DNA of 52,421 bases from Candidatus Iainarchaeum sp. (GCA_043812975.1 JBDRLP010000001.1:1-52421), one strand, 5' to 3'. Shown: positions 6,425 to 42,600, counted from the first letter of the stretch. Numbers and translations: made by a program. Notes: generated by a model not told the origin, from the letters alone.

Positions 6425-7296
6425 TCTGCAGCCTCCGCTTCCACAGTTTCCCCCTTCGGGGACTTCGCGTCTGTGGGCTGCGATGCACCCTGCTTTGCAG
6501 GGGGCTGCTCTTCAGTTTTTTCTGAAGTTTCCTCTTTCTTAGTTTCTTTTACTTCTTTTTTCTCTTCAGCTTTAGGTTTTTCTGGTTTTACTTCTACCTT
6601 AGGTTCTTCTTTTTCTTTCTTAGCTTCCGGCTTTTCAGTTACTTTTTCCTTTTTCTCTTCAACCCCTTTACCCTTCCCTTCGGTCAGGGCACCTTTGGCG
6701 GGACTCCCTTTGGTCGCAGGGGCATCTTTCTTTTCGCCTGTTTGAGTTTCTGCATCTTTTCCTGCTGATTCCTCAAACTCTTTCTTTAAATCTTTCTTTG
6801 GTTTTTCATTTTCAATCTTTAATGGTTTTCTATGCCAGCCAAGTTCTGAAACCTCATCTATATGAACCAAATAACCTGGTGCTGAAATTCTTTTTCCTTT
6901 AAGTGAAATATGTCCGTGAACAATGAACTGCCTTGCCTGCTTTGAAGTATTTGCAAGACCTTTTCTCAGGATTATTGTTTGTAATCTTTTTTCAAGTAGT
7001 TCCTCAACTTTCAATCCTAAAACATCATCTAATATAGCGTCAGATTTTACAAGATTGATTTTTCTCAAACCACTCATTAGTTCTTTTTCTCTTACCATTC
7101 TTGTTTCAAGAGGTAATGCCAAAAGACTTCTAGCAATTCGTCTTTTATTCCTTAACCAGGTTGTGTGTTTTCTCAATTCTTTCTTGTTTTTCAAACCATA
7201 AAAATTAACGAGTTTTCTCTCTGATACAAGTAATTGTTTATCCCACTTTTTTCTTGGGGTGCTGTATTGTTTTCTTCTTTTTTTAGGATCGCCCAT
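6421..7296 (-). CDS. rps4: 30S ribosomal protein uS4 with about 120 aa Lys/Glu-rich C-terminal tail carrying two repeat insertions
   Basis: MGDPKKRRKQYSTPRKKW, LEKRLQT, ARQFIVHGHI. Confidence 0.97.
   Translation of the reverse strand: MGDPKKRRKQYSTPRKKWDKQLLVSERKLVNFYGLKNKKELRKHTTWLRNKRRIARSLLALPLETRMVREKELMSGLRKINLVKSDAILDDVLGLKVEELLEKRLQTIILRKGLANTSKQARQFIVHGHISLKGKRISAPGYLVHIDEVSELGWHRKPLKIENEKPKKDLKKEFEESAGKDAETQTGEKKDAPATKGSPAKGALTEGKGKGVEEKKEKVTEKPEAKKEKEEPKVEVKPEKPKAEEKKEVKETKKEETSEKTEEQPPAKQGASQPTDAKSPKGETVEAEAAE
6441..6508 (+). repeat. Palindromic element copy, in frame in the uS4 tail (encodes QPPAKQGASQPTDAKSPKGETV)
   Basis: CCACAG/CTGTGG stem with nested CCCC-TTC-GGGG hairpin, plus CCCTGC-TTT-GCAGGG. 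Confidence 0.85.
6676..6719 (+). repeat. Palindromic element copy, in frame in the uS4 tail (ATKGSPAKGALTEG)
   Basis: GGCGGGACTCCCTTTGGTCGC, near-identical to the copies at 21444 and 36326. Confidence 0.85.
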
Positions 7297-7302
7297 TTTT
7301 CA

Positions 7303-7923
7303 TCACTTTTTTTTGTCCTTTTGTGTATCCTTCTTTGTTACTCCTACAGTAGTACCTTTATTCCTGTGAGTAGACTTATTTCTCTGGCCTCTTACAGGAA
7401 GCTTCCAAGTATGCCTTAATCCTCTGTAAGACTTGATTTCCCCAAGCCTCTGAAGGTCAGTTCTCAGGCCAAATTCAAGTTCACCCATAATTCTGTGAGT
7501 GTCTTCTCCTGTTGTAAAATCATTTTGTCTGTTAAGGCTCCAAGCAGGAATATTAAATTTTGTTGGGTTAAGCACAATCTGTTCGAGCTTTTTTACTTGT
7601 TCTTCTTTAATCTTTCCCAGTTTTTCATTTCCTGAAATTCCGGTTTCTTTTTCAAACACAATAGTCATGTTCTTAGCCATTCTCAAGCCAATCCCTCTGA
7701 TTTTAGTCAAAGCTCTTACTATTGTTGAGCTTCCGTTTAAATCATTGTCAGCAACCCTGACTATAAGTTCAACCTCTTCTACTGGTTTTTGAAATTTCTT
7801 TTCTGCAACCGTTGCGTCGGTGGATGCCCTTTGGGCGGCGTCCGCCTTCGGTAGGACTGCCTTGTCCGTAGCTTTTGCTTCATTTTCGTTAGCTTTTTCT
7901 TGTTCTTTTTTTTCTTCAGTCAT
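7303..7923 (-). CDS. rps13: 30S ribosomal protein uS13 with N-terminal extension
   Basis: ALTKIRGIGLR, SYRGLRHTWKLPVRGQRNKS. Confidence 0.97.
   Translation of the reverse strand: MTEEKKEQEKANENEAKATDKAVLPKADAAQRASTDATVAEKKFQKPVEEVELIVRVADNDLNGSSTIVRALTKIRGIGLRMAKNMTIVFEKETGISGNEKLGKIKEEQVKKLEQIVLNPTKFNIPAWSLNRQNDFTTGEDTHRIMGELEFGLRTDLQRLGEIKSYRGLRHTWKLPVRGQRNKSTHRNKGTTVGVTKKDTQKDKKK
7807..7860 (+). repeat. Palindromic element copy, in frame in the uS13 N-terminus (AVLPKADAAQRASTDATV)
   Basis: ACCG-TTGCGT-CGGT plus GTCCGCC-TTC-GGTAGGAC; matches the copy at 13703. Confidence 0.88.
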
Positions 7924-7927
7924 TTTA

Positions 7928-8974: not shown

Positions 8975-8988
8975 AAATAAAACCTCTT

Positions 8989-9026: not shown

Positions 9027-9038
9027 CACCGATTCCTT

Positions 9039-10953: not shown

Positions 10954-11415
10954 CTAGTTCATACTAATTATAAGTTTGTTAATTTCTTCTCCTCGATAGC
11001 CAAGTGCTCCACCTACTGTGAATGGCTTTTTTATACCTGCTCTCTTGTGTCCTTTTCTGGGAGGATGTAATCTTATCACAGGAACAATTCCTAAATCCTT
11101 AAGTTTTACTTTTCCTTCGATAACACTTTTAGCTAATTCTTCAAAGCTGTTAATTTTCTTTTCTTTTAAAAATTCAAGTATAATTTTCTTTTTGCCTTCT
11201 AATCTTCCTCTTTTTGCAAGAACCTTTGTAAGAGTTTCTTCGTTTATTTCCCCGAAAGCAACGTAATCTTTTATTTTTTCAACCATTTTTTTGGAAGGGT
11301 TATCATCTTTGACCAAAACCATGTGGTTTGGTCTGAACAATCTTAAATTTTCCATAGTGTATGTTAAACTAGGGTTAACGTTCACAGTTCCTCTTATTCT
11401 AATAACTGCTATCAT
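10954..11415 (-). CDS. rpl30: 50S ribosomal protein uL30
   Basis: IAVIRIRG, RLHPPRKG, GALGYRGEEINKLI. Confidence 0.96.
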   Translation of the reverse strand: MIAVIRIRGTVNVNPSLTYTMENLRLFRPNHMVLVKDDNPSKKMVEKIKDYVAFGEINEETLTKVLAKRGRLEGKKKIILEFLKEKKINSFEELAKSVIEGKVKLKDLGIVPVIRLHPPRKGHKRAGIKKPFTVGGALGYRGEEINKLIISMN

Positions 11416-11501
11416 CTTTTAGCCTCCAATTCAACAGTTGCGTCTGTTGGGTACGCATACGTCCACCCTATCTGCGATAGGGTATAAATATTCAAATTCA
11501 T
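11412..11501 (-). CDS. Bridge mini-ORF, 29 aa (MNLNIYTLSQIGWTYAYPTDATVELEAKR)
   Basis: ATG overlaps the uS5 stop (ATGA); its TGA overlaps the uL30 ATG. Translation is inferred, not shown. Confidence 0.5.
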   Translation of the reverse strand: MNLNIYTLSQIGWTYAYPTDATVELEAKR

Positions 11502-11517
11502 CTTTTAGCCTCCAATT
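11412..11517 (+). repeat. Junction element (11432-11497) flanked by a 20-bp direct repeat of the uS5/uL30 junction
   Basis: TCATCTTTTAGCCTCCAATT at 11412-11431 and 11498-11517. Hairpins CAACAG-TTGCGT-CTGTTG and ACCCTATC-TGC-GATAGGGT. Confidence 0.92.
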
Positions 11518-13150: not shown

Positions 13151-13265
13151 TAACGGACACCTCCGTTAGCGAGGTGTGCACCTCATTGCAAAACCTTCGG
13201 TTTTGCGATGCCCCGTATCCGAAGGATACAAGGTTGGTAGCACATACATAAAGTTTCAAATTCAT
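13143..13265 (-). CDS. Bridge mini-ORF, 40 aa (MNLKLYVCATNLVSFGYGASQNRRFCNEVHTSLTEVSVNG)
   Basis: ATG overlaps the eL32 stop; TAA overlaps the eL19 start (ATGGATAA). Confidence 0.45.
   Translation of the reverse strand: MNLKLYVCATNLVSFGYGASQNRRFCNEVHTSLTEVSVNG
13151..13261 (+). repeat. Junction element with SD-containing hairpins between eL32 and eL19
   Basis: CACCTCCG...GAGGTGTGCAC...GTAGCAC shared with the copies at 39044 and 40958. Nested GCAAAACC-TTC-GGTTTTGC and GTATCC-GAA-GGATAC hairpins. Confidence 0.85.
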
Positions 13266-13897
13266 GGGTTTAACACCTTGATTCCTTTTTCTATTGCCTT
13301 GTCAACTATTGCCAGTTTTTTCTTTCTTCCGAGTCCTGAAGCAACTCTTATTGCGTGTTTGTCAGGAACATTGTTTATTTCCTGGATTGTTTTAACATTA
13401 AATTCTCTATATCCGCTTGGGTGAATGTCCCTAATTTCTTTAGGCGTCCTGAAACCCTCTTTTGGGGTATAACCATCACACATTTCGTGCTTTACGTCAA
13501 TTCCTCTTGGGAATCTCCATTTGTTCCACTTCGGGTTACTTTTCTTTCTAAGGCTTCTTTTTCCAAACCTTCCTCTGAAAGTAGGAGTTCCCTGTTTCTG
13601 GTTAACTTTTCTTCTTGTTTTAGCAACCGCAGCGTCGGTTTTAATTTGAACCTTTCTGCTCTTTTTCACTTTCTTTGGTTTTGCTTCTTTTGAATCTTTA
13701 ACTACCGTTGCGTCGGTAGGGTGCGCGTCCGCCTTCGGCAGGACTGCTTTAACATCTTTTTTAGCATCAGTTTTTTTTGTTTTAGTTTTAGGTGCAGCTG
13801 CTTTAATTTTCTCTTTAACAGCAACCTTTGCTTTAGGTTTTTCTTTTACTGTTTCTGCTTTTTTAGTTTCTTTTTTTTCTGTTTTCTTTTTAACCAT
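13262..13897 (-). CDS. rpl32e: 50S ribosomal protein eL32 with about 95 aa Lys-rich N-terminal extension
   Basis: PTFRGR, KWRFPRGID, IRDIHPSGYRE. Confidence 0.95.
   Translation of the reverse strand: MVKKKTEKKETKKAETVKEKPKAKVAVKEKIKAAAPKTKTKKTDAKKDVKAVLPKADAHPTDATVVKDSKEAKPKKVKKSRKVQIKTDAAVAKTRRKVNQKQGTPTFRGRFGKRSLRKKSNPKWNKWRFPRGIDVKHEMCDGYTPKEGFRTPKEIRDIHPSGYREFNVKTIQEINNVPDKHAIRVASGLGRKKKLAIVDKAIEKGIKVLNP
13696..13753 (+). repeat. Palindromic element copy, in frame in eL32 (AVLPKADAHPTDATV), flanked by 7-bp direct repeats
   Basis: CTTTAAC at 13696-13702 and 13747-13753; insert plus one repeat is 51 nt (17 codons). CTACCG-TTGCGT-CGGTAG and GTCCGCC-TTC-GGCAGGAC hairpins. Confidence 0.9.
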
Positions 13898-13907
13898 TTC
13901 AATTCAC

Positions 13908-15533: not shown

Positions 15534-15680
15534 AATAATCACTCTGCTTCCACCGTTGCGTCACCCTTGCGGGTACTCCCTTCGGTCGCGGCGGAGTACG
15601 CGTCCATCTCGCCCGTTAGGGATGGACTCGGTAGGACTTGCTCATTTCGTTTGCATTTCACCATAATAATCACTCTGCTT
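15530..15680 (+). repeat. Composite junction element (15550-15660) flanked by a 20-bp direct repeat of the eS4/uL5 junction
   Basis: CCATAATAATCACTCTGCTT at 15530-15549 and 15661-15680; contains several family modules. Confidence 0.92.
15539..15664 (-). CDS. Bridge mini-ORF, 41 aa (MVKCKRNEQVLPSPSLTGEMDAYSAATEGSTRKGDATVEAE)
   Basis: Starts at the ATG of the upstream repeat copy and ends exactly at the duplicated eS4 stop. Confidence 0.5.
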   Translation of the reverse strand: MVKCKRNEQVLPSPSLTGEMDAYSAATEGSTRKGDATVEAE

Positions 15681-16398: not shown

Positions 16399-16837
16399 CT
16401 TCTTTCACCTTCTCCTTTTTATTTGCTTTAACTTCTGTTTTTGCCCCTGCACCCTCACGGGTATTCCCTTTGGTCACAATTTTTTTACCTTTTAATCTTC
16501 TGTCATCTTTATCCTCAATATTTACAATCATCAAATTACTCGCTTTGAAAGGAATCTGAATTTCAGTGCCGTCTAATCTTTTTCTTGTTATTCCTTCAAT
16601 AAGCACCTGTCTTTTTTGTCTTAAAATTGCAGTAATATGCCCCTGCTTTCCGACAAACTTTTCATTCCCTCTCATTATCTTTACTGTGTCTCCTTTTCTT
16701 CCATCCAGACTTCTTTTTCCAATGCTTTCCTTCAATTCCTTGCTTAAGTGCATTGCGAATTCTTTTTGCTGTAAGTGTAATGGTTTGGTGTAATGCCATT
16801 TTCTCTGTTTTTTTGGTTTTGAACTTGTTAATGTCAT
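16388..16837 (-). CDS. rpl24: 50S ribosomal protein uL24
   Basis: SSKPKKQRK, RKGDTVKIMRG, PFKASNLMI. Confidence 0.96.
   Translation of the reverse strand: MTLTSSKPKKQRKWHYTKPLHLQQKEFAMHLSKELKESIGKRSLDGRKGDTVKIMRGNEKFVGKQGHITAILRQKRQVLIEGITRKRLDGTEIQIPFKASNLMIVNIEDKDDRRLKGKKIVTKGNTREGAGAKTEVKANKKEKVKEDGK
16444..16477 (+). repeat. Short palindromic element copy, in frame in the uL24 tail (VTKGNTREGAG)
   Basis: CCCCTGCACCCTCACGGGTATTCCCTTTGGTCAC is the 21444 copy lacking its middle hairpin. Confidence 0.8.
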
Positions 16838-18340: not shown

Positions 18341-19198
18341 TCACTCTTTTTTATCCTCAGCTTTTTCTTCTTTAACTTCTTCCTTTTTTTCTTCAGGCTT
18401 CTCTTCCTTTGCTGGTTTTTCCGCTTTTTTCTCTTCTTTTTTAGGTTCTTTCTTTTCCTTAACTTCAGTTTTTTCTTTAGTTTCCTTTACTTTTTTCTTC
18501 TTTTCTTCTTCTTTTGAAATTTCTTTAGTTGCATCTTTTGTTTCTTTTTCAGTTTCCTCAGTTTTTTCTTTTTGTACTTCGGAAGCTTCTTCTTTTCCTT
18601 TAATATAATCTGTAATCTTTTCCTTATCCGGGAAAACCGTGTCAGGATGCACAATTTTAATTTTAATCCCGATTGCTCCTACTTTAGGGTAAGCATCTGC
18701 TTTACCATAATCAACAAGTCTTGCTTGCTCTCCGACTTTTTTCAAATAACCATAAGCAATTCTCTGTTTTCTTTTTCTTCCCGCTTTTCCAGCAATCTTT
18801 CCGCTTAAAATAATTTCTAACCCCTGCGCTCCGGCTTTTTTGGTTTCGTTTACTGATTTAAACACAATACTTCTCCATGAGAATCCTCTTTCAATAAGAG
18901 CTTTCATCTTGTTTGCAACAGCTTGTGCATCAAGTTCAGGATTTTCAATTTCTCTAATCTCTAATTGCGGGTTATCAATGCCAAATCTGCTTCCGATTGT
19001 TTCTGTTAATTGTGTAATGTTGGAACCGCTTTTTCCGATTGCAAGCCCTGGTCTTGTAACATTAACAACAATTCTTGTTACTAATGGGGTTTTCACAATC
19101 TCTGATTTTGTAAAGCCGGCCCTTTCAAGTTCTTTTGAAAGATAATCGTCCAGTTCAAGTTTTTTTAATCCCTGTTCAATGAAATATTTTTCTATCAT
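18341..19198 (-). CDS. rps3: 30S ribosomal protein uS3 with Lys/Glu-rich C-terminal tail
   Basis: KTPLVTRI, RPGLAIGKSG, ERGFSWR; start at 19198 overlaps TAATG. Confidence 0.97.
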   Translation of the reverse strand: MIEKYFIEQGLKKLELDDYLSKELERAGFTKSEIVKTPLVTRIVVNVTRPGLAIGKSGSNITQLTETIGSRFGIDNPQLEIREIENPELDAQAVANKMKALIERGFSWRSIVFKSVNETKKAGAQGLEIILSGKIAGKAGRKRKQRIAYGYLKKVGEQARLVDYGKADAYPKVGAIGIKIKIVHPDTVFPDKEKITDYIKGKEEASEVQKEKTEETEKETKDATKEISKEEEKKKKVKETKEKTEVKEKKEPKKEEKKAEKPAKEEKPEEKKEEVKEEKAEDKKE

Positions 19199-19394
19199 TA
19201 TTTGGCCTCCATCCACAGTTTCGGCTGTGGGCTACGATAACCCAAGCTCCTTTCAGTCGCATGGGTTTGGCTCACTCCGTTCGCTATAATCATTATTTGG
19301 CCTCCATCCACAGTTTCGGCTGTGGGGTGCACGTACCATCTTCGCTTGTGCTCGATGCTACTTAAAATATTAAAAATCATTATTTGGCCTCCAT
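19194..19394 (+). repeat. Two tandem junction elements between three copies of a 19-bp uL22/uS3 junction
   Basis: ATCATTATTTGGCCTCCAT at 19194-19212, 19289-19307 and 19376-19394. Both inserts begin CCACAGTTTCGGCTGTGGG. Confidence 0.93.
19198..19380 (-). CDS. Bridge mini-ORF, 60 aa (MIFNILSSIEHKRRWYVHPTAETV...KLWMEAK)
   Basis: ATG overlaps the uL22 TAA; reads through both inserts; its TAA overlaps the uS3 ATG. Confidence 0.5.
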   Translation of the reverse strand: MIFNILSSIEHKRRWYVHPTAETVDGGQIMIIANGVSQTHATERSLGYRSPQPKLWMEAK

Positions 19395-21067: not shown

Positions 21068-21546
21068 TATATTACACCTAACTTTGTAGCTATATCATCA
21101 GCTTTATATTTTTTGTCAATTGTAACAATTGCTTTCTTTCTTGATTTCATATCCTTAATGATGTTAACTGCGTTGACCTTAACTTTGTAAAGTCCTTCTA
21201 TTGATTTTTTTATGCTGATTTTATTAGCTTTTTTATCAACAATAAATGTAAGTTTGTTTTCTGCTTCAATCATGTTAACTGCTTTTTCTGTAATTAAAGG
21301 ATACTTAATAATTGTCAAACCTTCAATTTCTGCTTCAATTTCTTCTAAAGTTTTTTTCCCTTTCTTAACTTCCTTTTTCTTTTCTTTCTTTTCCTCTTTT
21401 TTATAATCTTCTTTTTTTGCTTCGGCTTTATGTGTGTGCTTTTCCCCTGCACCCTTACGGGTACCTTCGGCGGGACTTCCTTTGGTCGCAGCTTTCTTAG
21501 CTTCCTTTTTTGTTTTTACTTTTTTTTCTGTTTTTTTCTTAGCCAT
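21067..21546 (-). CDS. rpl23: 50S ribosomal protein uL23 with Lys/Glu-rich N-terminal extension
   Basis: [30 protein letters not shown]. Confidence 0.96.
21444..21491 (+). repeat. Palindromic element copy, in frame in uL23 ([16 protein letters not shown])
   Basis: GCACCCTTACGGGTACCTTCGGCGGGACT identical to the copy at 36326. Confidence 0.92.
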
Positions 21547-21556: not shown

Positions 21557-22459
21557 CTAAGCTTTTGCCTCACCCGAGCGTGCTCTTCCTCTGCGAGGAC
21601 CTAAGGGTCGGGAGGGAGCGTCCACCTTCGGTAGGACTTCCTTTTTTACTTCTTTCTTTTCACCAGCTAATTGTTTAATTGCATTCTCTGACCAGAGAGT
21701 TAATCTTCCCGGTAGAGTTCCTGGTGCTAAAAGATCAGCATTAATATTAACCGCACTTATAATGTCAACCCCTTCAAGGTTTCTTGCTGCTTTGTAAACA
21801 TTCTCTGGGTTTTCAACTACAATCAAAACACTTTTTCTTTTCTTGTATTTTCTTCCTCTCTTTTTTCCTTTTCCAGGTCTTAATTGTCTTTTACTCAAAG
21901 CCTTTTCTACATCCTGATAAACATCAATTGCTTTCAAAGCATCTCTAATATCTTTTGTTTTTGCAAGGGTTTCAAGCTTTGCTTCAACAACAATCGGAAA
22001 CTCTAATTTTTCTCCAAACTTGTGGCCTCTTTCTTTTACTAATTCTTTTTTTCCTGTTGCTGCGATTGCTGATTCAGTTGCCTGTCTTTTTTCTTTTTTA
22101 TTTATTTTTTCTTCCCATTCTTTGTTTGGCTTTGGAGGGTGTGCTTTTGGGCCTCCAACAACAGCCGGAATACTAGCAACGTGTCCTGAAAGGATTCCTC
22201 TTCTGTTTTTCAATCTTGGCTTTCTAGCATGGCCAACGTTAATTGTTCTGTGAATATTAGGTTTGTGCCTAGCTCCGATATATTCCGCAGTGTTTGCCCT
22301 TCCTGCTTCAGGTTTAGGGAAACTGTTTTGAACACCAGCAGACTGAATTGCCTGCACTGCTCTTTTAATAAGTGCTAGATTAATATCCGCAGAGAACTGC
22401 TTTGGTAAAGTAATATCAGGACCTTTTGTCCCATCCAAACCTAAAACACTAGCTTTCAT
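21557..22459 (-). CDS. rpl4: 50S ribosomal protein uL4
   Basis: VVGGPKAHPPK, KINKKEKR, RPGKGKKRGRKYK, LLAPGTLPGRLT. Confidence 0.97.
   Translation of the reverse strand: MKASVLGLDGTKGPDITLPKQFSADINLALIKRAVQAIQSAGVQNSFPKPEAGRANTAEYIGARHKPNIHRTINVGHARKPRLKNRRGILSGHVASIPAVVGGPKAHPPKPNKEWEEKINKKEKRQATESAIAATGKKELVKERGHKFGEKLEFPIVVEAKLETLAKTKDIRDALKAIDVYQDVEKALSKRQLRPGKGKKRGRKYKKRKSVLIVVENPENVYKAARNLEGVDIISAVNINADLLAPGTLPGRLTLWSENAIKQLAGEKKEVKKEVLPKVDAPSRPLGPRRGRARSGEAKA
21571..21638 (+). repeat. Palindromic element copy, in frame at the uL4 C-terminus (EVLPKVDAPSRPLGPRRGRARSG)
   Basis: GCGTCCACC-TTC-GGTAGGACT module plus CCTC-TGC-GAGG hairpin. Confidence 0.85.
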
Positions 22460-32300: not shown

Positions 32301-33086
32301 GTTTGGTTCCCATTTTAAGTAATCGCTTCTTCTTGTTGCAATTCCACCAATCCAATTAACAATCGCTTCTTCTTCAAACTCAAAGTAATTAGATATTCCG
32401 AATAAATCAGTTAGTTGATATTTCCCGTTCCAAATACAATGATAGAATGATTTTTCTTTTAGGTTAGTTTTAATGTTTTTATAAATTTTATCAATTCCTT
32501 CTTCTAAAATTTTGTTTTTTAAATTTTCAGAAGAGTCTTTTTTTAACTTTGCATAAAAATTGTTTTTTGAAAGTATTTTTAGTAATTCCAGTGAAACATC
32601 CATTTCAGCTATTGTTTTTGTTTCTCTTGCCGTAACAATTCTTTGTCCTTTTTGTATTTCCTCTGCTTTCAAATAAGATAATTCTTTTCCATCAAAAGTA
32701 AGGAACTTGTGTTCTGGTGTTGTGGAAATACTAGATCCGTTTCTTAGGGTAATTTCTTTTGTGTTTCCGCCCTTTAGTTTCCATGCATGGGAAATTTTTT
32801 TTGTGACTATTTTACCTGTTTTTGTATCTACAGAAAAAACTTTGATGTCTTTATTTAAAGCGTAAACAATTTCCGAATTGTTTTCTTTTACTTTTTCACC
32901 ATAAAGAGAAGAGTCATTAAATAATTCTCTTGCGGTTATAAAATTCCCGTTTTCTAATTGTATTCTAGTGTCCGGGGCAACACATTTACCATGGTCAATG
33001 TGGGCAACAATCCCGATGTTTCGGATGTTTTCTCTTTTGTTCATCAGCTGTGCAGCTAATTTTACAATATCTTCTTTTTTTACCAT
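29364..33086 (-). CDS. fusA: Elongation factor 2 precursor with intein (mature protein 730 aa)
   Basis: AHIDHGK|TTMTDNL, ERGITI, DTPGHVDF, NKVDR; diphthamide site DAIHRG. Confidence 0.97.
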   Translation of the reverse strand: MVKKEDIVKLAAQLMNKRENIRNIGIVAHIDHGKCVAPDTRIQLENGNFITARELFNDSSLYGEKVKENNSEIVYALNKDIKVFSVDTKTGKIVTKKISHAWKLKGGNTKEITLRNGSSISTTPEHKFLTFDGKELSYLKAEEIQKGQRIVTARETKTIAEMDVSLELLKILSKNNFYAKLKKDSSENLKNKILEEGIDKIYKNIKTNLKEKSFYHCIWNGKYQLTDLFGISNYFEFEEEAIVNWIGGIATRRSDYLKWEPNYKELFYLAGLMIGDGTESKFVVGKPLLGKEFKRICKEFGLKTHNRNYEGKTPEIGVSKTLTNILKALFDYPLKKKSHNVKISKFLQKSPSELVTKFLKGYFDTDGSVETGRKAITISSASNQMIDELPLLLNRFGCVAIKEKDNTISISGESFSNFVKNIGFFLPEKMKKAKELEKTIVGSQVCDLIPMNGFKESREGKQLSKNEIDKHYYKYENEIYIPTRNTYQKMVLKLKEKGINSAIDVSQLAFIEVSGIKDGFEETIYDFSVPETKNFVAETIVVHNTTMTDNLISASGLMSSELAGKQLVMDSEDQEQERGITINAANISLLHKYKDTEHLINLIDTPGHVDFGGDVIRAMRAVDGVVLVVDAVEGVMPQTETVIRQALREYVKPVLYINKVDRLINELQVTEQQMQEKFVKVIANVNNLISKNCPLGFKNEWTVKVQDGSVCFGSAYNNWAVSVPRMEATKINFKQVYEYLKNEDQKSLAEKSHLSDAVLEMVITHLPNPIEAQKYRMPIIWKGEKESEMGKGMITCNENSPFSMMVTDVSVDKHSGDIATGRCYSGKVKKGSKVYLVGGKKEIQIQKVGIFMGPDFIEANEVPAGNIVALVGLKEVYAGETIASEEIKPFESFMSEAEPVITISVEAKSTKDLPKLIETIRQITKEDPNIRATINQETGEHLLSGMGELHLEITQYRIEKHHNIPITVSQPIVVYRETIGKDSPTVEAKSPNKHNKLKLHVELIDEETRQNLIKSHFDGKVKPKDKEKITMFQEMGFGREESKKIWAVHNNCVLVDATRGIEALHEIRELVIQGFTDVMDQGPLAKEKCFGVKVVIEDATLHEDAIHRGPAQMLPTVTRGCYACMLSADAVLYEPKQKLTITVPETYLGAVSNELGSRRTQINEMRTEGDSSIIIGKAPVKELIGFSSNIRGATQGRALWTAEYAGYELLPRELQKSTIEEIRKRKGMDPEVKPASFFMD
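31455..32984 (-). mobile_element. Intein (510 aa) with LAGLIDADG homing endonuclease, in the EF-2 P-loop
   Basis: Begins CVAPDT after GK; ends NFVAETIVVHN before T; TTPEHKF block B; LAGLMIGDG and FLKGYFDTDGS endonuclease motifs. Confidence 0.96.
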
Positions 33087-34186: not shown

Positions 34187-34342
34187 TTATCTGATTCTTA
34201 CTTCTTCAACGCCGCTTGCGATCGGCACCCTTACGGGCACATGCGGTACCGCGTCCACCTCACTTTGTTCGGTAGGACTTAGTTCCTTGTTCGCAAACTT
34301 TTTCTAATAATTCTTTTCATCACCTAATTCTTACTTCTTCAA
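34187..34342 (+). repeat. Composite junction element (34207-34294) between nusA and rps12, with a duplicated NusA C-terminus
   Basis: ATTCTTACTTCTTCAA at 34194-34209 and 34327-34342; modules shared with 21001 and 21444. Confidence 0.88.
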
Positions 34343-35063: not shown

Positions 35064-36425
35064 TTATTTTTTCATTACAAGAGTTACCCTGCCTGTTCCA
35101 ACCTTAATAGGCTGACCAACTATAATGTTTTCAACAACACCTTCAAGAGTTTCTATTTCTCCCTTGAATGCTGCGTCTAACAAGTGTTTTACTGTTTCCT
35201 CAAATGCTGCTCTTGCGAAAGGACTTGCTTTTCCTCTTGTGATTCCTGTTCTTACAATTCCTCTGATTTCTCCGTCAAAGCACATTGAATCAGCTAATAG
35301 CATTATATGTCTTATGTCAACTGCAATACTATTATCCTTCAGAACTCCAGATAATTCATTTACAATCGCCATTCTTCCTGCTTCAATTCCCAATACTTTG
35401 CTGATTTCTTTAATGTCATTAGTGGTTGTTTTTGAACCATTAATTTCCGGCAGTTTCACAATTGCTTTTAAGTTAGTGCCTCTGGTTTTAATGACTTTCT
35501 CGTTGTTCTCATCTATAAGAATAACTTTTTCAATTCCTCTGATTCCCTGAATCCTTGTTGATTTCAGTTTGTTCATGGTTCTTCTGATTTTTAAAAGTGC
35601 TTCATTTTTGAAAATAAAATCAAGCAAATACTTGTCTTTTCTTTTCCCCTCCATCTTTATGTGCTTATTGATTTTTGCAACAAGCTCATCAATATCAACA
35701 TTTCTTGATTCGATTGCTTCCTTATCAAGTTCAATTGTAACTTTTCCCTTGAATAAATCTTCATGAATTTTAATAACATCATCAATTCTTACATCAATTA
35801 ATGTTTTTGCAAAAGCATCAAGTTTTTTCTCATCTTTATTTAATTCTTCATCATCGATGTAAATTGTCATTATAGGATATTTAGCTTTTAATCTCCCGTC
35901 AACAATTTCTTCAACCCTCTGGATTCCTGATCCAACACTTACTTCTGCAGAACCCGCATAGTGTTTTGTTCTAAGTGTCAATTGTGTTCCTGGTTCCCCA
36001 AGACTTTGTGCAGTAATAATTCCTACTGCTTCTCCAGGTTCAACCATGCTTTTTTCATATCTTTCTTTAACTTGTGAAAATAGTTTTTCTTTTTCCTTGT
36101 CATTAATTTTTAATTCATTAGCGACTGTTTCAAAATCCATTAATACTTTTTTAGGAATTCCTTCTGTTTCAAAAAGATCTCCTTGTACAAATACTCTTTC
36201 AACTTCCACTACTTCTTTTTTGGTTGTTTTTTTTGGTTTCTTAACTGTTTTAGTGGTTTTTTTAGCTGTGGGTTTTGCCTTTTCACTCTTATCTTTGGTT
36301 GTGGTCTTTTTCATAGTTTTCTTAACCCCAGCACCCTTACGGGTACCTTCGGCGGGACTCCTTTTGGTCGCTGCTTTTTTTGTTTCTTTCTTTTCTTTTT
36401 TCTTGGTTTCTTTTTTTGCAACCAT
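35064..36425 (-). CDS. rpoA2: RNA polymerase subunit Rpo1C (A'') with Lys/Thr-rich N-terminal extension
   Basis: [38 protein letters not shown]. Confidence 0.97.
36326..36372 (+). repeat. Palindromic element copy, in frame in Rpo1C ([16 protein letters not shown])
   Basis: Near-identical to the copy at 21444. Confidence 0.92.
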
Positions 36426-36430
36426 AAAAA

Positions 36431-39043
36431 TCACTTACTCCTCATTTTTTCGAGTTCCCTCTGAACTGAAATGCTTCTTCCCTTGAATGTTTTCTCCGGG
36501 AATATTCCGTCTTCACCATACTTGTACTGTATAATGTTCTTGTTAGCCGTCCTTACAGTTGAATCATTGTTAACAACAAGATCTTTCAGACTGTTTGCAA
36601 GTCTTCTGTATAAGTAACCAGAAACTTTTGTGGATACTCCTGTGTCTACTTCTCCTTGTCTTCCGCCCATTGCGTGGTAAAAGAATTCAAAGCTTGTCAT
36701 TCCTTCCATAAAGTTGTGGTAAATAAATCCGCCTGCGTCAATTCCTACATCGTTCTTATGGTTTAAAGCAATTAATCTGTTGGCGAATCCTCTTTTTGGT
36801 CTTCCTTCTCTTACAGAAGCCTGTCCCCACATTCCTGAGAGGTTTACAAGGTTGATTATGTTTCCTCTGGAACCTGAAAGTATCATCACATTGCTATCGT
36901 ACTCTGGTTCATCTATCAGGACACTGTCAACAATTTCTTTTTTGATTTGTTTTTCAAGTTTCCCTTTTGCTTCAGAAGCAGTTCTCATCATGCTAACTTC
37001 GAAACTCTCTTTTAGTGTTCTTCCCGGGATAAGTTCTAATGTTCCTTTTTCGTATTTCTTCACGTGTTCTTTTGCAATTTCAGCCATTTCTTCAACAGCT
37101 TTTTCTCTGATTTTCAGAACCTTTTGAGTTGGCTTGTATTCTTCTAAACTATTTGTCATTCCAACTTCAGTTATTAAAGTTGCAACCATTTTTGAAAGTG
37201 AATCATAAAAGTTTGTGATTACTTCAGGAGGATAATCCCTTGCTAAAGCATCAACAAGTTTTCCTCTTCCTTCTCCAAGGCTCATTGAGTCAATTACTCC
37301 TGATTTCAAAATGCCGTTTTCAATCTTAACAATAAGATCGTTCTTGTAAAGGTCCTTCAGCAAAGGGTGATTCTTATCAAGATCAGTTATAATTCCCATG
37401 AACTTGCTTTTGTATTCCATGTTAAGGTTTTTTGGAAGTAACTGTGAGAAAATAAGTTTTCCTGAATACTTGTCCTTACCAACATCCGGTTTTGGAATAT
37501 CCTTTAAGCCCATAATCTGGAAAAATCTGAATGCCCTGTCTTTATTGAAAACGGTTTGTTTCATTGTTAAAATGAAACTTGCTGAAACACCATCCTCATC
37601 CAGGATAATTACTGGTCCACCGTGTCTTGGTGAAATAATTTGTTTTTGTACAATCATTAGTTCTATTGCTTCTGAAATTCCTTCAGGAGTCTGTGGAACG
37701 TGCATGTTCATTTCGTCTCCATCAAAGTCTGCGTTGTATGGTTTACAAACAATAGGGTTCATCCTGAAAGTCTTGTCATCCATTATTCTTGCCCTGTGTG
37801 CCATCATTGATAATCTGTGCAGTGAAGGCTGCCTGTTAAACAAAACAATATCTCCGTTTCTGAGTTTTCTGTCTAACCTGTAACCAACATCAAGTTCTTC
37901 ATTAATCAGATCTATGTTTGTTTCAGCAACTTTTCTTCTCATCCCATCAGGTCTTGAAACATAAATTGCTCTTCCATCTTTAATCATTTTTTTAGCTTCA
38001 ACAATGTTGTTTTTTGTTACAATTTCAGGAACTGTCATTGTTTCTGCAATTTCGCTTGGAACACCAAGTTCGTTAATTGAAAGCATTGGGTCAGGAGTAA
38101 TAATAGACCTAGCCGCAAAATTAACTCTTTTTCCTGTTAAATTATATCTGAATCTTCCTTTCTTTCCCTGTAACCTTTGAACAAGTGTTCTTAGTGCACG
38201 TCCTGATCTGTGCTTTGCCGGCGGAACTCCCGCAGTGTTGTTATTGAAATAAGTTGTAACATGGTATTGTAACAAATCCCAAAGATCCTCAATAATAAGC
38301 TGAGGCGCTCCCGCATCAATGTTATCTTTTAATCTTATATTGATTCTGATAATATCTACAAGTTTGTGTGTTAAATCATCTTCACTTTTGATTCCTGATT
38401 CAAGTGTAATGCTTGGTCTCAAGTTTATTGGCGGAACCTGCAGAACAGTCATGATGAACCATTCAGGTCTTAAATCATTAAAGCCGTAACCAAAGAATTC
38501 AACATCTTTATCAGGAATTTTTTCCATCCATTCTCTGATTTCAGTAGGGTATATTCTATCTTTTTCCAAGTAAAAGTTGGTTGGTTTATCAAGGGTCACC
38601 AAGCCTCTTTCAACATTACAATGAGGGCACTTTTTTACCTTCTTGGTTCTTGTCAGGATTTTTTTCCCAATATCCATTGAGTCATCATCTATAAATGGCC
38701 TTAATTGTTCAAGTTTTTCTTCAGGAATAACTATTCTTCCACAATTCTGGCAGCTTGCCTGCATTAATATTTCCAGTTTTTTTCCAAATTCACTGTGAAT
38801 AATTGGTCTTACAACTTCTATGTGTCCAAAGTGACCTGGGCATTTTTTCATTGTGTTTCCGCAGGTCTTACATCTCAAACCTGGGTTTATAACACCTAAA
38901 TGATTATCCATTAATCCGCCTTCCATTGGGAAGCCATCTTTGTCATAAGTTTCAGGGCTTTTGATGTCTATTGCTGACATTTTCCTGATCATTTCAGGGC
39001 TCATAATGCTAAATTCAATTGATTTGATTCTTTTTGTCATCAT
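36431..39043 (-). CDS. rpoA1: RNA polymerase subunit Rpo1N (A')
   Basis: [25 protein letters not shown] catalytic motif. Confidence 0.98.
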
Positions 39044-39129
39044 TACGCGGTCACCTCCGCGTGTGAGGTGTGCACTTCGCTTGGGCTCAGTAGCACTGGC
39101 TCACATCCGTTCGCAAAATCATTTTTCAT
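39043..39129 (-). CDS. Bridge mini-ORF, 28 aa (MKNDFANGCEPVLLSPSEVHTSHAEVTA)
   Basis: ATG 4 nt after the rpoB' stop, with GGTG SD; its TAA overlaps the rpoA' ATG. Confidence 0.5.
   Translation of the reverse strand: MKNDFANGCEPVLLSPSEVHTSHAEVTA
39044..39115 (+). repeat. Junction element with SD-containing hairpins between rpoB' and rpoA'
   Basis: CACCTCCG..GAGGTGTGCAC..GTAGCAC plus CTCACATCCGTTCGC module. Confidence 0.85.
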
Positions 39130-39133
39130 ACAA

Positions 39134-40957
39134 TCACACCTTGTCATCCAATATAAGTTTTGGGTATACTCCCAGTGCTTTTAATTCATCTAATAATAAT
39201 TTGAAACCGTAACTCATCTCAACAGGATAAATCTTAGAATCATTTACTTCAAGAACTCTTTTTGTTTTTCTTAACTGATCCTCAAATCCAATTACTCCTG
39301 CGGTTTCTGAAACCCACATTGTTACTTTGTCAGAATCATCAATGAACTTTTCCTGCAATAACATTGCAGCTCCATGTCCTACTAATGTTTCACCTTCCAT
39401 CTCTCCAAACCTTAATCCGCCTTCTTTTTCTTTTCCTTCAGTTGGTTGTCTGGTTAATATCTGTACCGGGCCTCTTGCTCTTCCCTGTATTTTGTGTGCA
39501 GTCATGTGGAATAGTCTCCTGTATGAAACCATTCCTGTAAAAATTTCTCCGTGCATTCTTTGTCCGGTTGTTCCGTCGTAGAAAACTTCTTTTCCGTTTT
39601 TCTTGAATCCTGAGGTCTCAAGCATTTTTTCAATTTCATCCTCATTAACTCCTCCAAATGGAGTTCCGTCTATTTGTTTTCCTTTTATTGCTGCTGCTTT
39701 TCCGGCAAGCATTTCTAGTAAGTGTCCAATAGTCATCCTTGATGGGATTGAGTGAGGGTTCAAAATTAAATCAGGTTTAATTCCGTCTGGAGTAAATGGC
39801 ATGTCTTCCTCAGGAACAATTAATCCAACAACCCCTTTCTGGCCGTGTCTTGAACTGAACTTATCTCCTAATGCAGGAATCCTTTCACTTCTGATTTTAA
39901 TTTTAACAAGTTTATTTCCTGAGTCAGCTTCTGTAACAAATATTTTTTCAACATGACCTGCTTTTCCTTTTCTGATTGTAATGCTTGCTTCTCTTCTTTT
40001 TTCCTGAACAACACCAAATTCGTTAATCTCTTCTAAGAATCTTGGTGGTGAGGTTTTTCCTATAATAACATCACTTTCGGTTACGTAAGATTCAAGCTGG
40101 ATTAAACCATCTTCTCCAAGTTTTTTGTAATAATCCTCTCCTAAGTGTCCTACGGTGTCCTCAGGGGGTATTTCAAACTTGTCAATCTGTCCACCAGGAT
40201 ATCTGTTTTCTGAACTTTCGTAAGTTCTGTAGTAACTGCTTCTTCCCAGACCTCTGTCGATAGCTCCTTTGTTTAGGATAACAGCATCCAGAATATTGAA
40301 TCCATAGTACGGCATTATCGCTACTACGAAATTCTGGATTTGTGGTCTTTCATTCAAACCAATCATATCCATTGTTTTTGTTTTTACAAGTGACTTTTGC
40401 GGGTAATGAAGTAAATATCCTTCTGTATCTGTTCTTAATTTGTAATTGGCTGCACCAAATCCCTGGGCTTGTTTAAACATTTTTGCACCGTGTAATGCTT
40501 TTCCAGCCATGTTGTGTTCCAAGTATGGAATCATTGAACTCACAATACTCAGAATTACAGCTCCGTCAATTTCCAAATGAGTGTGTTCTTTAGTTAACTG
40601 ATCTTCAGTTGCAGCAATTAGTGCGTTTTCTTCTTCCTCTGAATCAAGGTATTCTATGTAACCTTGTTCAACGACATCATTCCAAATAAGCTTCCTTTCA
40701 TGGACCTGTTTAACAATGTCCTCTGTGATTGTTGGTTTTCCGTTTTCAACAACAAGCAGTGGCCTTTGTACACGTCCGGCATCTGTGTTGATGTAAACTT
40801 CATTGGTGTCTTCGTGGAATGCAACATTAACCTGTTCTGAAATTTTTGATTCTCTTCTTCTTGCAATTATTTCTTTTGTAAGTTTTATAGGGTCAGGGTG
40901 GAATCCGATTAGTCTTCCGTTAATGTAAACTTTTGCTTTTTTTGCTTCGCTAACCAT
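39134..40957 (-). CDS. rpoB1: RNA polymerase subunit Rpo2C (B')
   Basis: GDKFSSRHGQKG, PSRMTIG, GGLRFGEME; start at ATG 40957. Confidence 0.97.
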   Translation of the reverse strand: MVSEAKKAKVYINGRLIGFHPDPIKLTKEIIARRRESKISEQVNVAFHEDTNEVYINTDAGRVQRPLLVVENGKPTITEDIVKQVHERKLIWNDVVEQGYIEYLDSEEEENALIAATEDQLTKEHTHLEIDGAVILSIVSSMIPYLEHNMAGKALHGAKMFKQAQGFGAANYKLRTDTEGYLLHYPQKSLVKTKTMDMIGLNERPQIQNFVVAIMPYYGFNILDAVILNKGAIDRGLGRSSYYRTYESSENRYPGGQIDKFEIPPEDTVGHLGEDYYKKLGEDGLIQLESYVTESDVIIGKTSPPRFLEEINEFGVVQEKRREASITIRKGKAGHVEKIFVTEADSGNKLVKIKIRSERIPALGDKFSSRHGQKGVVGLIVPEEDMPFTPDGIKPDLILNPHSIPSRMTIGHLLEMLAGKAAAIKGKQIDGTPFGGVNEDEIEKMLETSGFKKNGKEVFYDGTTGQRMHGEIFTGMVSYRRLFHMTAHKIQGRARGPVQILTRQPTEGKEKEGGLRFGEMEGETLVGHGAAMLLQEKFIDDSDKVTMWVSETAGVIGFEDQLRKTKRVLEVNDSKIYPVEMSYGFKLLLDELKALGVYPKLILDDKV

Positions 40958-41015
40958 ATGCGGAGACCTCCGCATTCAGAGGTGTGCACCTGCGGTAGCA
41001 CCTATTAAAATTCAT
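40950..41015 (-). CDS. Bridge mini-ORF, 21 aa (MNFNRCYRRCTPLNAEVSAYG)
   Basis: ATG overlaps the rpoB'' stop; TAG overlaps the rpoB' start (ATGGTTAG). Confidence 0.45.
   Translation of the reverse strand: MNFNRCYRRCTPLNAEVSAYG
40958..41000 (+). repeat. Junction element with SD-containing hairpins between rpoB'' and rpoB'
   Basis: ATGCGGAG-AC-CTCCGCAT and GAGGTGTGCACC..GTAGCAC. Confidence 0.85.
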
Positions 41016-42478
41016 TTAAGTTTCACTCCCATGTCGTTCAATAATTTTTCAACTGGGTCTTCTTCAGTTTCAGTTGTTACTTCTGCAAGCATTGCCAAAT
41101 TTTTTACCAAACCACATTGTGGTCCGTCAGGAGTTTCTACAGGGCATAGTCTTCCCCAGTGGGTTCCGTGAACGTCCCTTGCTTCATAAAGTTCTCTGTT
41201 TTTGTCAAGCGGGCTCTTAACTTTTCTCAGGTCAGTTAATGGAGATAAATAATTAACTCTGTCCATGAACTTTGAAACCCCAGTAGCCCTGCCAATCCAG
41301 TTTCCTGTACTCATAGCAAACCTGATTCTTTCTGATACTGCGCCCGGCCTTACAATAGTTGAAATGTTAAGTTTTCTTCTTCTTGTAACAGTTCTGTCAA
41401 TCTGGAATTTCAAATCTTTAATGAAATATTTGAACGAGTACCTGAATAAGTGTTCCATTAATTTTCCTGACAATTCCAGTCTTTTGTTAGCATAATGGTC
41501 CTTATCATCTTCTTCCCTTAAATCATAAGCTCTTTCAATTGCCTTAGTTGCCATCATAACCAAGTAATATGCTTTAGCAAGCCTGTCTTTTGAATCCTGT
41601 CCAATGTGCGGTAACAGGAAAGCATCTATTACTTCCTGTGCTCTTCTAAGCCTGTACTCTTCCACCTGCCCTGGTGCGACAAATTTCCCGATTTTGTCAA
41701 GAGCTTCTTTTTCAGATTTTACTAATAAATTTTCATTATTAATCAGAACATCATTTTGTACTTCCATTTCATCAACAAAAGCATCCTTAATTGACTGTGA
41801 TGTTTTGATTCCGAGTGCTTTCAGTAAAACAAATAGTTTTAATTTTCTTGGTGAAGCCGGGAAGGTAACATGCAGGAGTCCATCTGGGCTTCTTAAGATT
41901 CTTACTCTTCCTTTGAAAGCGCCTTTAGTTGAGATAACTTCTGCAACAATTTTATCTGTCTGTTCTGAAACAATAACTCTGTCAGAAGCTAAAACTTCCT
42001 GAGTCATCAAAGCTTTTTCAGAACCATTTACAATGAAGTAACCTCCAAAGTCCATTGGGTCTTCTTTTAATTCAATTAGTTCTTCTTTGGTTTTTCCGTT
42101 CAACCAGCAAAGATGACTTTTAAGCATTACGGGTAATTCGCCGATGTAAGTATCTTTCCGATCATGCTCAACATCTCTTCTCAGAAGTTTCATGGTTAAG
42201 TTAATAGGGCTTGAGTAGGTTCTGTTTCTCAGCCTTGCTTCTATTGGGTAGAATTCGTTTCTGGGTGAACCGTCAGCTTCAACAATTCTTGGTTTTAAAA
42301 TACTAATCTTGTCAAACTCAACTTTTACTTCCTCAATCTTAGGAACAACTTCTTTGTTTTCAGCAACAATTTCCGGAAGTTTCTTTTTAACAAACTGGTT
42401 GAAAGAATCAATTTCCATCTGGGCAATATTTCTGTCTCTGAAATAAGAATTGATTAGGGTCCAGCCGTTAATAGCCAT
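41012..42478 (-). CDS. rpoB2: RNA polymerase subunit Rpo2N (B'')
   Basis: IDSFNQFV, EARLRNRTYS, GYFIVNGSEK, HWGRLCPVETP; start at ATG 42478 with GAGGTG SD. Confidence 0.97.
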   Translation of the reverse strand: MAINGWTLINSYFRDRNIAQMEIDSFNQFVKKKLPEIVAENKEVVPKIEEVKVEFDKISILKPRIVEADGSPRNEFYPIEARLRNRTYSSPINLTMKLLRRDVEHDRKDTYIGELPVMLKSHLCWLNGKTKEELIELKEDPMDFGGYFIVNGSEKALMTQEVLASDRVIVSEQTDKIVAEVISTKGAFKGRVRILRSPDGLLHVTFPASPRKLKLFVLLKALGIKTSQSIKDAFVDEMEVQNDVLINNENLLVKSEKEALDKIGKFVAPGQVEEYRLRRAQEVIDAFLLPHIGQDSKDRLAKAYYLVMMATKAIERAYDLREEDDKDHYANKRLELSGKLMEHLFRYSFKYFIKDLKFQIDRTVTRRRKLNISTIVRPGAVSERIRFAMSTGNWIGRATGVSKFMDRVNYLSPLTDLRKVKSPLDKNRELYEARDVHGTHWGRLCPVETPDGPQCGLVKNLAMLAEVTTETEEDPVEKLLNDMGVKLK

Positions 42479-42600
42479 TAAACAACCACCTCGCCGTTTT
42501 CCCACTTCGTGGACTTCGCGACCGGCGGCACCGAAGCACACTGCTTCGCAGTGGGCGTGCTCGCTTCGCTCGCAAAATAATTGCCGATTATACAACCACC
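42477..42600 (+). repeat. Junction element (42492-42573) between rpoH and rpoB'', flanked by a 14-bp near-perfect duplication
   Basis: ATTA(A/T)ACAACCACC at 42477-42490 and 42587-42600. Hairpins CCAC-TTC-GTGG and CACTGC-TTC-GCAGTG; CTCGCTTCGCTCGC module. Confidence 0.88.

Follow-up and report, generated by a model that had tools for sequence, protein, structure and literature searches.

The repeats MJRE1-3 of Methanocaldococcus jannaschii, reportedly described by Suyama, Lathe and Bork in 2005, are said to be palindromic and mostly extragenic, with a few in-frame coding copies, and to be ancient, with diverged copies that show no sign of recent insertion or of a duplicated target. To our knowledge, archaea have no system of the type of short and long interspersed elements (SINE/LINE). 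The Rickettsia palindromic elements (RPE) are small palindromic repeats of a compact genome that lie between genes and, in frame, inside conserved protein genes, whose function they do not disrupt (PMC2229807, PMC10969869); they are single stem-loops of 105-146 bp with terminal inverted repeats and an uncertain target duplication (PMC2229807). The YPAL or RU-2 element of Yersinia, a bacterial 168-bp unit with internal inverted repeats that targets regions of dyad symmetry, is associated with duplications of 3-26 bp, has been recently mobile as judged from filled and empty sites, and can be co-translated (PMC2229807). The REP/BIME-RAYT and IS200/IS605 systems consist of short GC-rich imperfect palindromes in mosaics that are strand-specific and are read as folded single-stranded DNA by HUH (Y1) transposases; these elements are extragenic, lack target duplications and lie beside a fixed tetra- or pentanucleotide (PMC3733652, PMC2817692). 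The casposase, which represents the known class of archaeal (Cas1-type) integrases with long duplications, produces 15-bp duplications (4, 16 and 22 bp off target) in a ruler-like manner, favors tRNA 3' ends and requires ends derived from terminal inverted repeats (PMC5137440). Here we analyze the GC-rich hairpins that recur along a 52,421-base contig from 'Candidatus Iainarchaeum' sp. (hereinafter the window, which is the entire contig) and find that they are modules of recent, recurrent mobile DNA insertions rather than fixed conserved hairpins. Most likely, the hairpins make up a family of small (~45-120 nt), non-autonomous mobile elements that copied themselves into the ribosomal-protein and RNA-polymerase operons of a DPANN archaeon similar to Iainarchaeum.

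G+C-rich islands mark approximately 19 clusters in the 52 kb, with composite elements of 45-120 nt (Table 1). We compared these with ~300 kb of related loci (denoted by L numbers), including L001 and L003 of Iainarchaeum ARS1427, which are syntenic with the window at 87-92% DNA identity, and L102 and L108 of genome P6-4. In relatives with 85-92% DNA identity, at least nine positions are empty, namely the junctions S5/L30, S4e/L5, L32e/L19e, L22/S3, B'/A' and NusA/S12, the S4 tail, and the N-termini of L32e and A''. ARS1427 has a single target copy, without the element, at S5/L30, S4e/L5, L32e/L19e, the S4 tail and L22/S3, and P6-4 is empty at B'/A', NusA/S12, the A'' N-terminus, S5/L30 and L32e/L19e. 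Six insertions in the window are flanked by perfect duplications, of 16, 18, 20, 20, 20 and 42 bp, and there are seven close direct repeats of at least 16 bp where 0.03 are expected; the duplications in relatives measure 10-11, 14, 15 and 18 bp when exact and ~23 bp in a diverged case. Some sites (B''/B', the S13 N-terminus, the L24 C-terminus) hold different elements in different relatives. The perfect target duplications, the empty sites and the occurrence of different elements at one junction identify the hairpin elements as recent insertions, small and multicopy, with flanking duplications of variable rather than fixed length.

All the hairpins that the first-pass annotation had reported on the plus strand were recovered where it had placed them (Table 1), but the genes and the elements themselves are actually on the minus strand, and the span that it gave for the hairpins stops short of a further element at 49722-49814. 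On the sense strand, module (b) has the form GTCC-T-NCC-GAA-GGN-GGAC-GC and module (a) either CNACNG-NCGCAA-CNGTNG or CGCCG-ATCGCAAA-CGGCG; the nested mini-hairpin is TCC(C/A)C-GAA-G(G/T)GGG. The 20-mer pattern of (b) has three matches in the window compared to 0.00 expected. Read on this strand, an element begins with a variable, AT-rich leader, often (T)GAATTT.., followed by one or more GC-rich hairpins and then by a 3'-terminal (a) or hairpin (c); the longer elements add a GCGAAGC-like mini-hairpin. The dated copies of the window end 3' in hairpin (a), immediately next to the downstream copy of the duplication; in two relatives, up to 7 bases separate the two. Modules recombine and nest: the (a) variants at 6441 and 42492, which differ from each other, have one and the same 18-nt mini-hairpin nested in their loops; in the 15.6 kb element, (a) is reduced to its loop and 3' arm, and in the 11.4 kb element, (b) is reduced to its 3' half. 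In the 13.2 kb element, the hairpin GTATCC-TTC-GGATAC (sense; 13215-13229) has a loop polarity opposite to that of its neighbor GCAAAACC-GAA-GGTTTTGC, so that modules can take either orientation within an element. The tandem arrangement at L22/S3 (19194-19326) can be read in two ways, either as two elements each ending in an identical (a), or as a second, 57-nt insertion that duplicated 38 bp comprising (a) and the segment with the Shine-Dalgarno (SD) site and ATG.

The ends of the elements are asymmetric. A search for terminal inverted repeats in the eight delimited elements found none, the best match being 3-4 compared to a shuffled mean of 3.4-4.8; a classical miniature inverted-repeat transposable element was rejected on this point, although size, copy number and flanking duplications do fit. 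At the 3' junction, no consistent motif, microhomology or target consensus was found; the recurrent TGA/ATTT at the 5' junction is suggestive yet ambiguous. Two hairpin elements in relatives (L058, 1204-1411, and L012, 1484-1678), which have a common first hairpin of the type CGTTTGCG..CGCAAACG, begin exactly at the 3' ends of tRNA-Val and tRNA-Arg genes, respectively, and the 15-bp duplication in L058 is the last 15 nt of the tRNA-Val gene, which may point to a preference of the 5' junction for RNA gene ends. A bulge-helix-bulge intron was rejected on inspection given that the boundaries are direct repeats and not complementary.

The bulged A of (b) (a bulged T on the sense strand), which had been described as invariant, is indeed present throughout the window but is missing in more distant relatives, where (b)-type hairpins without the bulge read GTCCAACC-GAA-GGTTGGAC (L103) and GTCCCGTC-GAA-GACGGGAC (L106). 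For the analysis of covariation, we took units of two hairpins, either (b)+(a) or (b)+(c), and aligned 13 independent ones from the window and from seven further genomes; the alignment was seeded on the (b) pattern, and the second helix was not chosen for pairing. Standard pairs occupy 98.8% of the stem cells, compared to 75.4% in shuffles; 9 of the 13 pairs vary on both sides (35 cells) and none varies on one side alone. The covariation score is 0.598, compared to 0.147 for shuffles (none of the 500 reaches the score) and at most 0.091 for slid partners. The covariance model derived from this alignment produced 51 matches, 45 of them distinct, in 315 kb, and the distinct copies are 96.8% paired, with 96 double-change cells and approximately 6 G.U cells. 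Owing to the shared ancestry of the copies, these cell counts exceed the real number of events; at least 8 distinct, fully paired (a)/(c) stems are represented. The covariation of the hairpins is thus confirmed far beyond chance, and the claim that structure, not sequence alone, is kept among the copies stands on both the 13-unit count and the 45-copy search.

Comparison of resident with transposed copies shows where the fold is maintained. Orthologous resident copies are available at the S13 N-terminus (window and L001) and the S4 C-terminus (window and L107), and the two pairs differ by six stem substitutions in total, none of which is compensated, those in the (b) stem of S13 being synonymous; the window copy at 7838-7857 itself has a mismatch without compensation. 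The stems of independent insertions are intact and Watson-Crick paired. Because resident copies decay whereas transposed copies stay paired, the fold is maintained in the transposing lineage and not at the place of residence; it matters for propagation and not for a local host function. Of the two explanations offered in the first-pass annotation, the proposal that a protein recognizes the fold is accordingly favored insofar as the fold is needed for propagation, recognition as such being presumed, whereas intra-strand correction of resident copies is disfavored by the six uncompensated substitutions.

A related possibility is that palindromes are made at the DNA level, by snap-back synthesis, template switching or mismatch correction in a folded strand, without any selection on the fold. 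We regard this as very unlikely because correction of resident copies would keep the orthologs paired, which they are not, and because the loops, the linkers and the order (b) then (a)/(c) are conserved across genomes with 35-51% GC, as befits a recognized, inherited element. What speaks for such a process is that one-sided or G.T states are absent from the 169 cells of the independent copies and rare in 462, and that some hairpins are chimeric or nested, as would be expected from template switching at stems; examples are the half-(a) at 15550, the (a) loops that contain a mini-hairpin (6441, 42492 and 49722) and, at 11.4 kb, a different stem joined to the 3' half of (b). Templated copying of an arm during the transposition step would fit the near absence of G.T pairs. 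The summed minimum free energies of the sense and antisense strands are practically equal, and a choice of the folding strand from energy was therefore rejected; the counts of loop types lean mildly to the sense strand (11 GAA loops compared to 5), on which the loops are of the C-GAA-G and GNA/GNRA types, for example, GTAA, GCAA and GTGA. The scarcity of G.T, the GAA/GNRA loops of the sense strand and the equal strand energies are compatible with an intermediate of folded single-stranded DNA or with the copying of arms from a template during transposition; an RNA intermediate may be compatible as well.

The insertions sit at gene junctions, at tRNA 3' ends and in disordered, lysine/glutamate-rich protein tails. 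The duplications at operon junctions extend from a few bases upstream of the SD site to 1-4 bases past the start codon, so that the upstream gene retains its stop, and the downstream gene its SD and ATG. Of the eight junction elements tested, seven have a small frame that opens at the duplicated ATG, crosses the element and stops no more than ~13 bases from the true start; in the eighth, the frame is also open when read on the sense strand. The chance of an open frame after shuffling is 0.2-0.4 per junction element, and given that open frames are far commoner than in shuffles, the duplicated stop, SD and start, together with a small frame or in-frame read-through, would keep translation running. 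An in-frame duplication of the start codon, such as that with the 87-nt period at L22/S3, could itself make N-terminal extensions. The coding copies, all in one frame, lie in terminal extensions of S4, S13, L32e, L24, L23, L4 and RpoA'', and their peptides include ..VLPK(A/V)DA..PTDATV..; the in-frame hairpin modules accumulate in lysine/glutamate-rich tails.

This regularity of the coding copies, the position of the variable bases of the CNACNG-type (a) stem at the third codon positions of P-T-x-A-T-V, and the reading of (b) in the coding-copy frame by those small junction frames that contain it could be taken to mean that the conserved entities are peptide modules of the tails, with the hairpins incidental. 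Such an origin seems extremely improbable. Many copies are intergenic, near tRNA genes or in 3' regions, and the compensated substitutions in (b) exchange the encoded amino acids (V/A; V,D to A,G), so that peptide conservation cannot cause the covariation of the stems. Furthermore, the duplications and empty sites denote DNA insertion, not descent of a protein domain, and no Pfam domain covers the inserted modules.

The general kind of these elements is already known from RPE, MJRE and YPAL, but no compared system matches every feature. The present elements resemble RPE in their location between genes and in frame in protein genes and in the open-frame design, but consist of several hairpins of 5-8 bp in a row, lack pairing between their ends and have clear duplications of 7-42 bp. 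In contrast to the MJRE, they can be dated by comparison with relatives and have a defined modular anatomy and polarity. The likeness to YPAL is that of a non-classical miniature element with widely variable duplications and recent mobility; YPAL lacks the strict sense orientation seen here, and duplication of the SD site and start codon is not reported for it. Maintenance of stems by structure over sequence is shared with REP/BIME, whereas the long duplications, the flanks that differ at every site and the common coding copies set the present elements apart from REP/BIME and IS200/IS605. Palindromes of the REP/BIME-RAYT or IS200/IS605 type have GTAG or CGTC as a conserved tag at their foot (PMC3733652). 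The antisense strand of (b), GCGTCCACCTTCGGTAGGAC, contains GTAG and CGTC, neither as a terminal tag, and GTAG ends only 2 of 9 (a) stems. Long duplications, and the 15-bp one at the tRNA-Val end in L058, recall the casposase, but there are no terminal inverted repeats, the duplications range from 7 to 42 bp and no Cas1 was seen. In outcome only, the elements are similar to the products of SINE/LINE target-primed retroposition, with a structured 3' end, variable 5' ends, variable duplications and lack of autonomy; unlike these, they have no 3' A-tail or simple repeat, and no reverse transcriptase gene was seen. Our search of the literature did not turn up any account of comparable elements from Iainarchaeota or DPANN.

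Insertion is polar and independent of terminal inverted repeats, with the target duplicated over 7-42 bp. We propose that copying is anchored at the 3' hairpin and that, as the duplications suggest, staggered breaks are made and then filled in. Only copies with intact hairpins would propagate, which would result in Watson-Crick covariation, and the fold would most probably be read in a single-stranded intermediate by the mobilizing machinery. Selection would then retain those insertions that duplicate the overlapping stop, SD and start with the frame open; such selection for preserved signals would account for the clustering of junction duplications at 14-20 bp, compared to 6-7 bp for the coding insertion and 10-11 bp for a promoter-proximal one. 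A bolder and decidedly tentative interpretation is that these are an undescribed class of prokaryotic elements, non-autonomous, without terminal inverted repeats, 3'-hairpin-anchored and inserted only in the sense orientation by polar copying (target-primed or by an integrase that reads a folded strand), with staggered duplications of 7-42 bp. On this interpretation, they would have become harmless to a minimal genome by duplicating the stop, SD and start, by remaining open in one frame and, in the type-2 elements, by bringing a portable SD/anti-SD cassette for translational coupling.

Several points weigh against mobile elements as the explanation of the hairpins. Neither the window nor the ~300 kb of loci from relatives showed genes for a transposase, reverse transcriptase, Cas1 or HUH nuclease, so that the mobilizing activity is hypothetical, and the evidence comes from one contig and these loci. 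Precise deletion between the direct repeats is in principle another source of the empty sites, but one that would need repeated loss in several relatives. Folding as DNA and folding as RNA are not discriminated by the strand energies. All 12 covariance-model matches in the window are on the gene-sense strand, as are the matches with E <0.1 in operons of relatives with known gene strand, and the divergent and convergent contexts (L012, L042, L060 and 49.7 kb) cannot separate a transcription-linked from a replication-linked orientation; this sense-only orientation and the placement just upstream of the SD site could instead reflect a host function. Finally, the type-2 elements at 13.2, 39.1 and 41.0 kb and several in L103 have no clear duplication and carry their own GGAGGTG, which may pair with CACCTC upstream of it or occupy a small hairpin's loop, and these modules look like purposeful translational devices.

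The corresponding alternative is that the hairpins between cistrons function in the mRNA of the host, as processing sites, as protection from 5'-to-3' exonucleases or in translational coupling. In addition to the sense orientation of every copy, this is compatible with the location of (a) 0-7 nt upstream of the SD site at junctions, the mutual exclusion of the anti-SD:SD and SD-in-loop hairpins in type-2 elements, and the GNRA loops (GTAA, GCAA, GTGA) of the sense strand. We nevertheless consider it unlikely: the same junctions are empty, with tight or overlapping genes, in relatives with 85-92% identity, the perfect target duplications mark recent insertion, pairs are lost without compensation in resident orthologous copies, and G.U pairs are nearly absent, which is unusual in selected RNA helices. 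Rfam, searched with its gathering thresholds and again with E values of up to 5, matched only the tRNA and no family for the hairpins. A conserved cis-regulatory RNA of ribosomal-protein operons was rejected given its absence in close relatives, the decay of resident orthologs and the lack of an Rfam match.

Table 1. Hairpin modules and hairpin-containing elements in the 52,421-base window, with the state of the same sites in related loci
Feature	Position (strand)	Structure	Flanking duplication	Relatives
Module (a), CAACAG/CTGTTG	11432 (+)
Module (a), CTACCG/CGGTAG	13702 (+)
Module (a), CCACAG/CTGTGG	6441, 19213 (+)
Module (a), CGCCG/CGGCG	21004, 42492 (+)
Module (b), GTCCACC..GGTAGGAC	21620 (+)
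Module (b), GTCCGCC..GGCAGGAC	13727 (+)
Module (b), GCCCACC..GGTAGGGC	21029 (+)
Nested hairpin, TCCCCCTTCGGGGA	6449 (+)
Nested hairpin, TCCCACTTCGTGGA	42500 (+)
S4 C-terminal tail	6437..6515 (-)	Hairpin CCCTGC-AAA-GCAGGG and (a) 6441-6476 with mini-hairpin nested in loop; in-frame translation, ..QPTDAKSPKGETVEAEAAE then stop		None in L001, L108; L107 copy with uncompensated changes
S4 tail, second	6665..6730 (-)	GC-rich 'D7' family module cluster; peptide APATKGSPAKGALTEGKG		Not in L001, L107, L108
S13 N-terminal extension	7800..7875 (-)	Old in-frame element: (b) 7838-7857 with A.C mismatch, (a) 7806-7823 with one mismatch		L001 ortholog differs by uncompensated substitutions; L107 has another, 'D7' module; L108 none recognizable
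S5/L30	11412..11517 (-)	66-nt element 11432-11497; (a) at 11432-11449; small reading frame spans element	Perfect, 20 bp, AATTGGAGGCTAAAAGATGA, 11412-11431 and 11498-11517; contains SD site and start codon	Empty in L001, L108
L32e/L19e	13152..13263 (-)	Type-2 element with alternative terminal hairpins: ACACCTC/GAGGTGT (anti-SD and SD paired) or ACGGA-GGTG-TCCGT (SD in loop)		Empty in L001, L108
L32e N-terminal region	13696..13753 (-)	In-frame 51-nt (17-codon) insertion: CA, (b) 13725-13744, (a) 13702-13719	(G)TTAAAG, 6-7 bp	Absent in L001
S4e/L5	15530..15680 (-)	111-nt composite element 15550-15660; terminal (a) reduced to loop and 3' arm; small reading frame	Perfect, 20 bp, AAGCAGAGTGATTATTATGG	Empty in L001
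L24 C-terminal tail	16435..16475 (-)	D7-type module with ACCC-GTGA-GGGT hairpin		L003: different element, (b)+(a)
L22/S3	19194..19394 (-)	Tandem elements 19212-19288 and 19308-19374; (a) at 19213-19230 and 19308-19325	Three copies of (A)TGGAGGCCAAATAATGAT(T) flank and separate the tandem elements; repeats 20 and 18 bp	L003: one target copy, element absent
L23/L2	20979..21067 (-)	(b) variant GCCCTACCAAAGGTGGGCGC 21027-21046; (a) CGCCG-ATCGCAAA-CGGCG 21004-21021	Diverged
L23 N-terminal extension	21436..21495 (-)	D7-type module (families D7, D9) with ACCC-GTAA-GGGT hairpin
L4 C-terminal tail	21560..21645 (-)	In frame: (b) 21618-21637, then (c) CCCGA..TCGGG with nested insert
NusA/S12	34194..34342 (-)	117-nt element 34210-34326: (b) with loop insert 34251-34278, CCC-GTAA-GGG hairpin, (a) variant	Perfect, 16 bp, TTGAAGAAGTAAGAAT	Empty in L102
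RpoA'' N-terminal extension	36322..36377 (-)	D7-type; 33-nt core 88% identical to the 6.7 kb copy		L102: ~87 nt missing
rpoB'/rpoA'	39042..39128 (-)	Type-2: CACCTC/GAGGTG or ACGCGG-AGGTGA-CCGCGT		Empty in L102
rpoB''/rpoB'	40955..41015 (-)	Type-2, ..GTGCACACCTCTGAATGCGGAGGTCTCCGCATATG		Matching module at NusA/S12 in L103; L102 has a (b)+(a) element instead
rpoH/rpoB''	42477..42600 (-)	96-nt element 42491-42586: GCGAAGC-type mini-hairpins and (a) with nested hairpin 42492-42527	14 bp, diverged, GGTGGTTGT(A/T)TAAT
Kinase/dCMP-deaminase gene, 3' end	49680..49856 (-)	93-nt element 49722-49814; 5' hairpin and (a) in common with the 19.3 kb element	Perfect, 42 bp, the gene's last codons

The contig, with 36% G+C, carries genes on the minus strand from ~1 to 43 kb. 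The Pfam search identified an archaeal housekeeping block (rpoH, split rpoB''/B', rpoA'/A'', L30e, NusA, S12, S7) along with EF-2, EF-1a, S10 and RtcB, and the cluster L3-L4-L23-L2-S19-L22-S3 ... SecY ... S13-S4-S11; there is one tRNA-Leu. The closest proteins and loci come from 'Candidatus Diapherotrites' and Iainarchaeum genomes, which are DPANN archaea. A phage or prophage origin was rejected because the genes are archaeal housekeeping genes and megablast of 20 kb against phage records gave no match. Among public reads, only DNA runs with this genome, from groundwater and biofilm and with a low share of the genome, were found, and no RNA runs; the contigs assembled from them are fragmentary, without informative joints.

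Other features of the contig were observed along the way. The EF-2 gene (29364-33086, minus strand) contains an intein with a LAGLIDADG homing-endonuclease domain (approximately residues 51-544), which is present in L104 and L105 (1242 aa) but not in L102 and L103 (730 aa); a further intein is found in RpoB'' of L105 (1490 aa). The spacer that separates EF-2 from EF-1a (278 nt) contains a perfect 14-bp AT-rich hairpin, CTTTTCTTTTCTCT-gtcca-AGAGAAAAGAAAAG, at 29182-29214, and L102 has a similar but imperfect one at the corresponding position; a terminator or a processing site is a possible role for the window hairpin, which has no relation to the GC-rich modules. Pfam and PHROG gave no match for a 615-aa open reading frame (23915-25762, minus strand) located between RtcB/S10 and L3. 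Long, lysine/glutamate-rich low-complexity extensions are present in many ribosomal proteins and in RpoA'', seen on the plus strand as T/C-rich repeats, at 3575-3700, 6509-6680, 13755-13905, 18344-18580, 21361-21443, 22496-22630 and 36357-36417.

The exact 20-mer of (b) occurs in Iainarchaeum ARS1427, I. andersonii and several further archaeal genomes, again with flanking duplications, and in more distant relatives with 46-51% G+C, (b), a linker and (a) likewise follow one another, and many additional stems are compensated. A metagenome-wide scan for the (b)+(a) core gave five true matches, all in genomes already compared; with the exception of archaeal clusters, a genome scan for (b) gave mostly chance matches in high-GC bacteria. 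Outside DPANN, the 20-mer GTCCTACCGAAGGTGGACGC is present in Candidatus Methanolliviera (L030, L032, L039, L051) and a Halobacteriota genome (L022, L063), where it is always preceded by a T-rich sequence ending in TTTTTACA (or GATAA) and followed by an AGGGT..ACCCT hairpin, with gene 3' ends adjoining. It may be that archaeal phyla share a family of related elements to which these copies belong. Three tandem repeats of 23 nt adjoin the hairpin in L051. If the elements do form an undescribed class, the 20-nt hairpin shared with Methanoliparia and Halobacteriota would point to exchange between DPANN and other archaea.

These findings have implications for the evolution of compact archaeal genomes. 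About 3% of a contig that carries the core ribosomal-protein and RNA-polymerase genes consists of recently inserted, selfish hairpin elements, some of which are read as parts of ribosomal proteins and of one RNA polymerase subunit; in annotation, they give rise to wrongly assigned upstream starts, to small frames that are spurious and to 'extensions' of universal phylogenetic marker proteins that are specific to a lineage. The elements provide a natural experiment on 'compensatory' change in palindromic repeats, with hairpins kept in the transposing lineage and lost in residents. The combination of a fixed 3' hairpin, no terminal inverted repeats, long, variable duplications that copy the SD site and start, and strict sense orientation is not explained by any characterized archaeal transposition enzyme and is a lead to a new mechanism. 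Portable parts for the control of expression in archaea could be derived from the SD/anti-SD cassette and from the C-GAA-G hairpins, which are very stable. DPANN genomes are among the smallest and most compact cellular genomes, and they still gain sequence and new protein tails.

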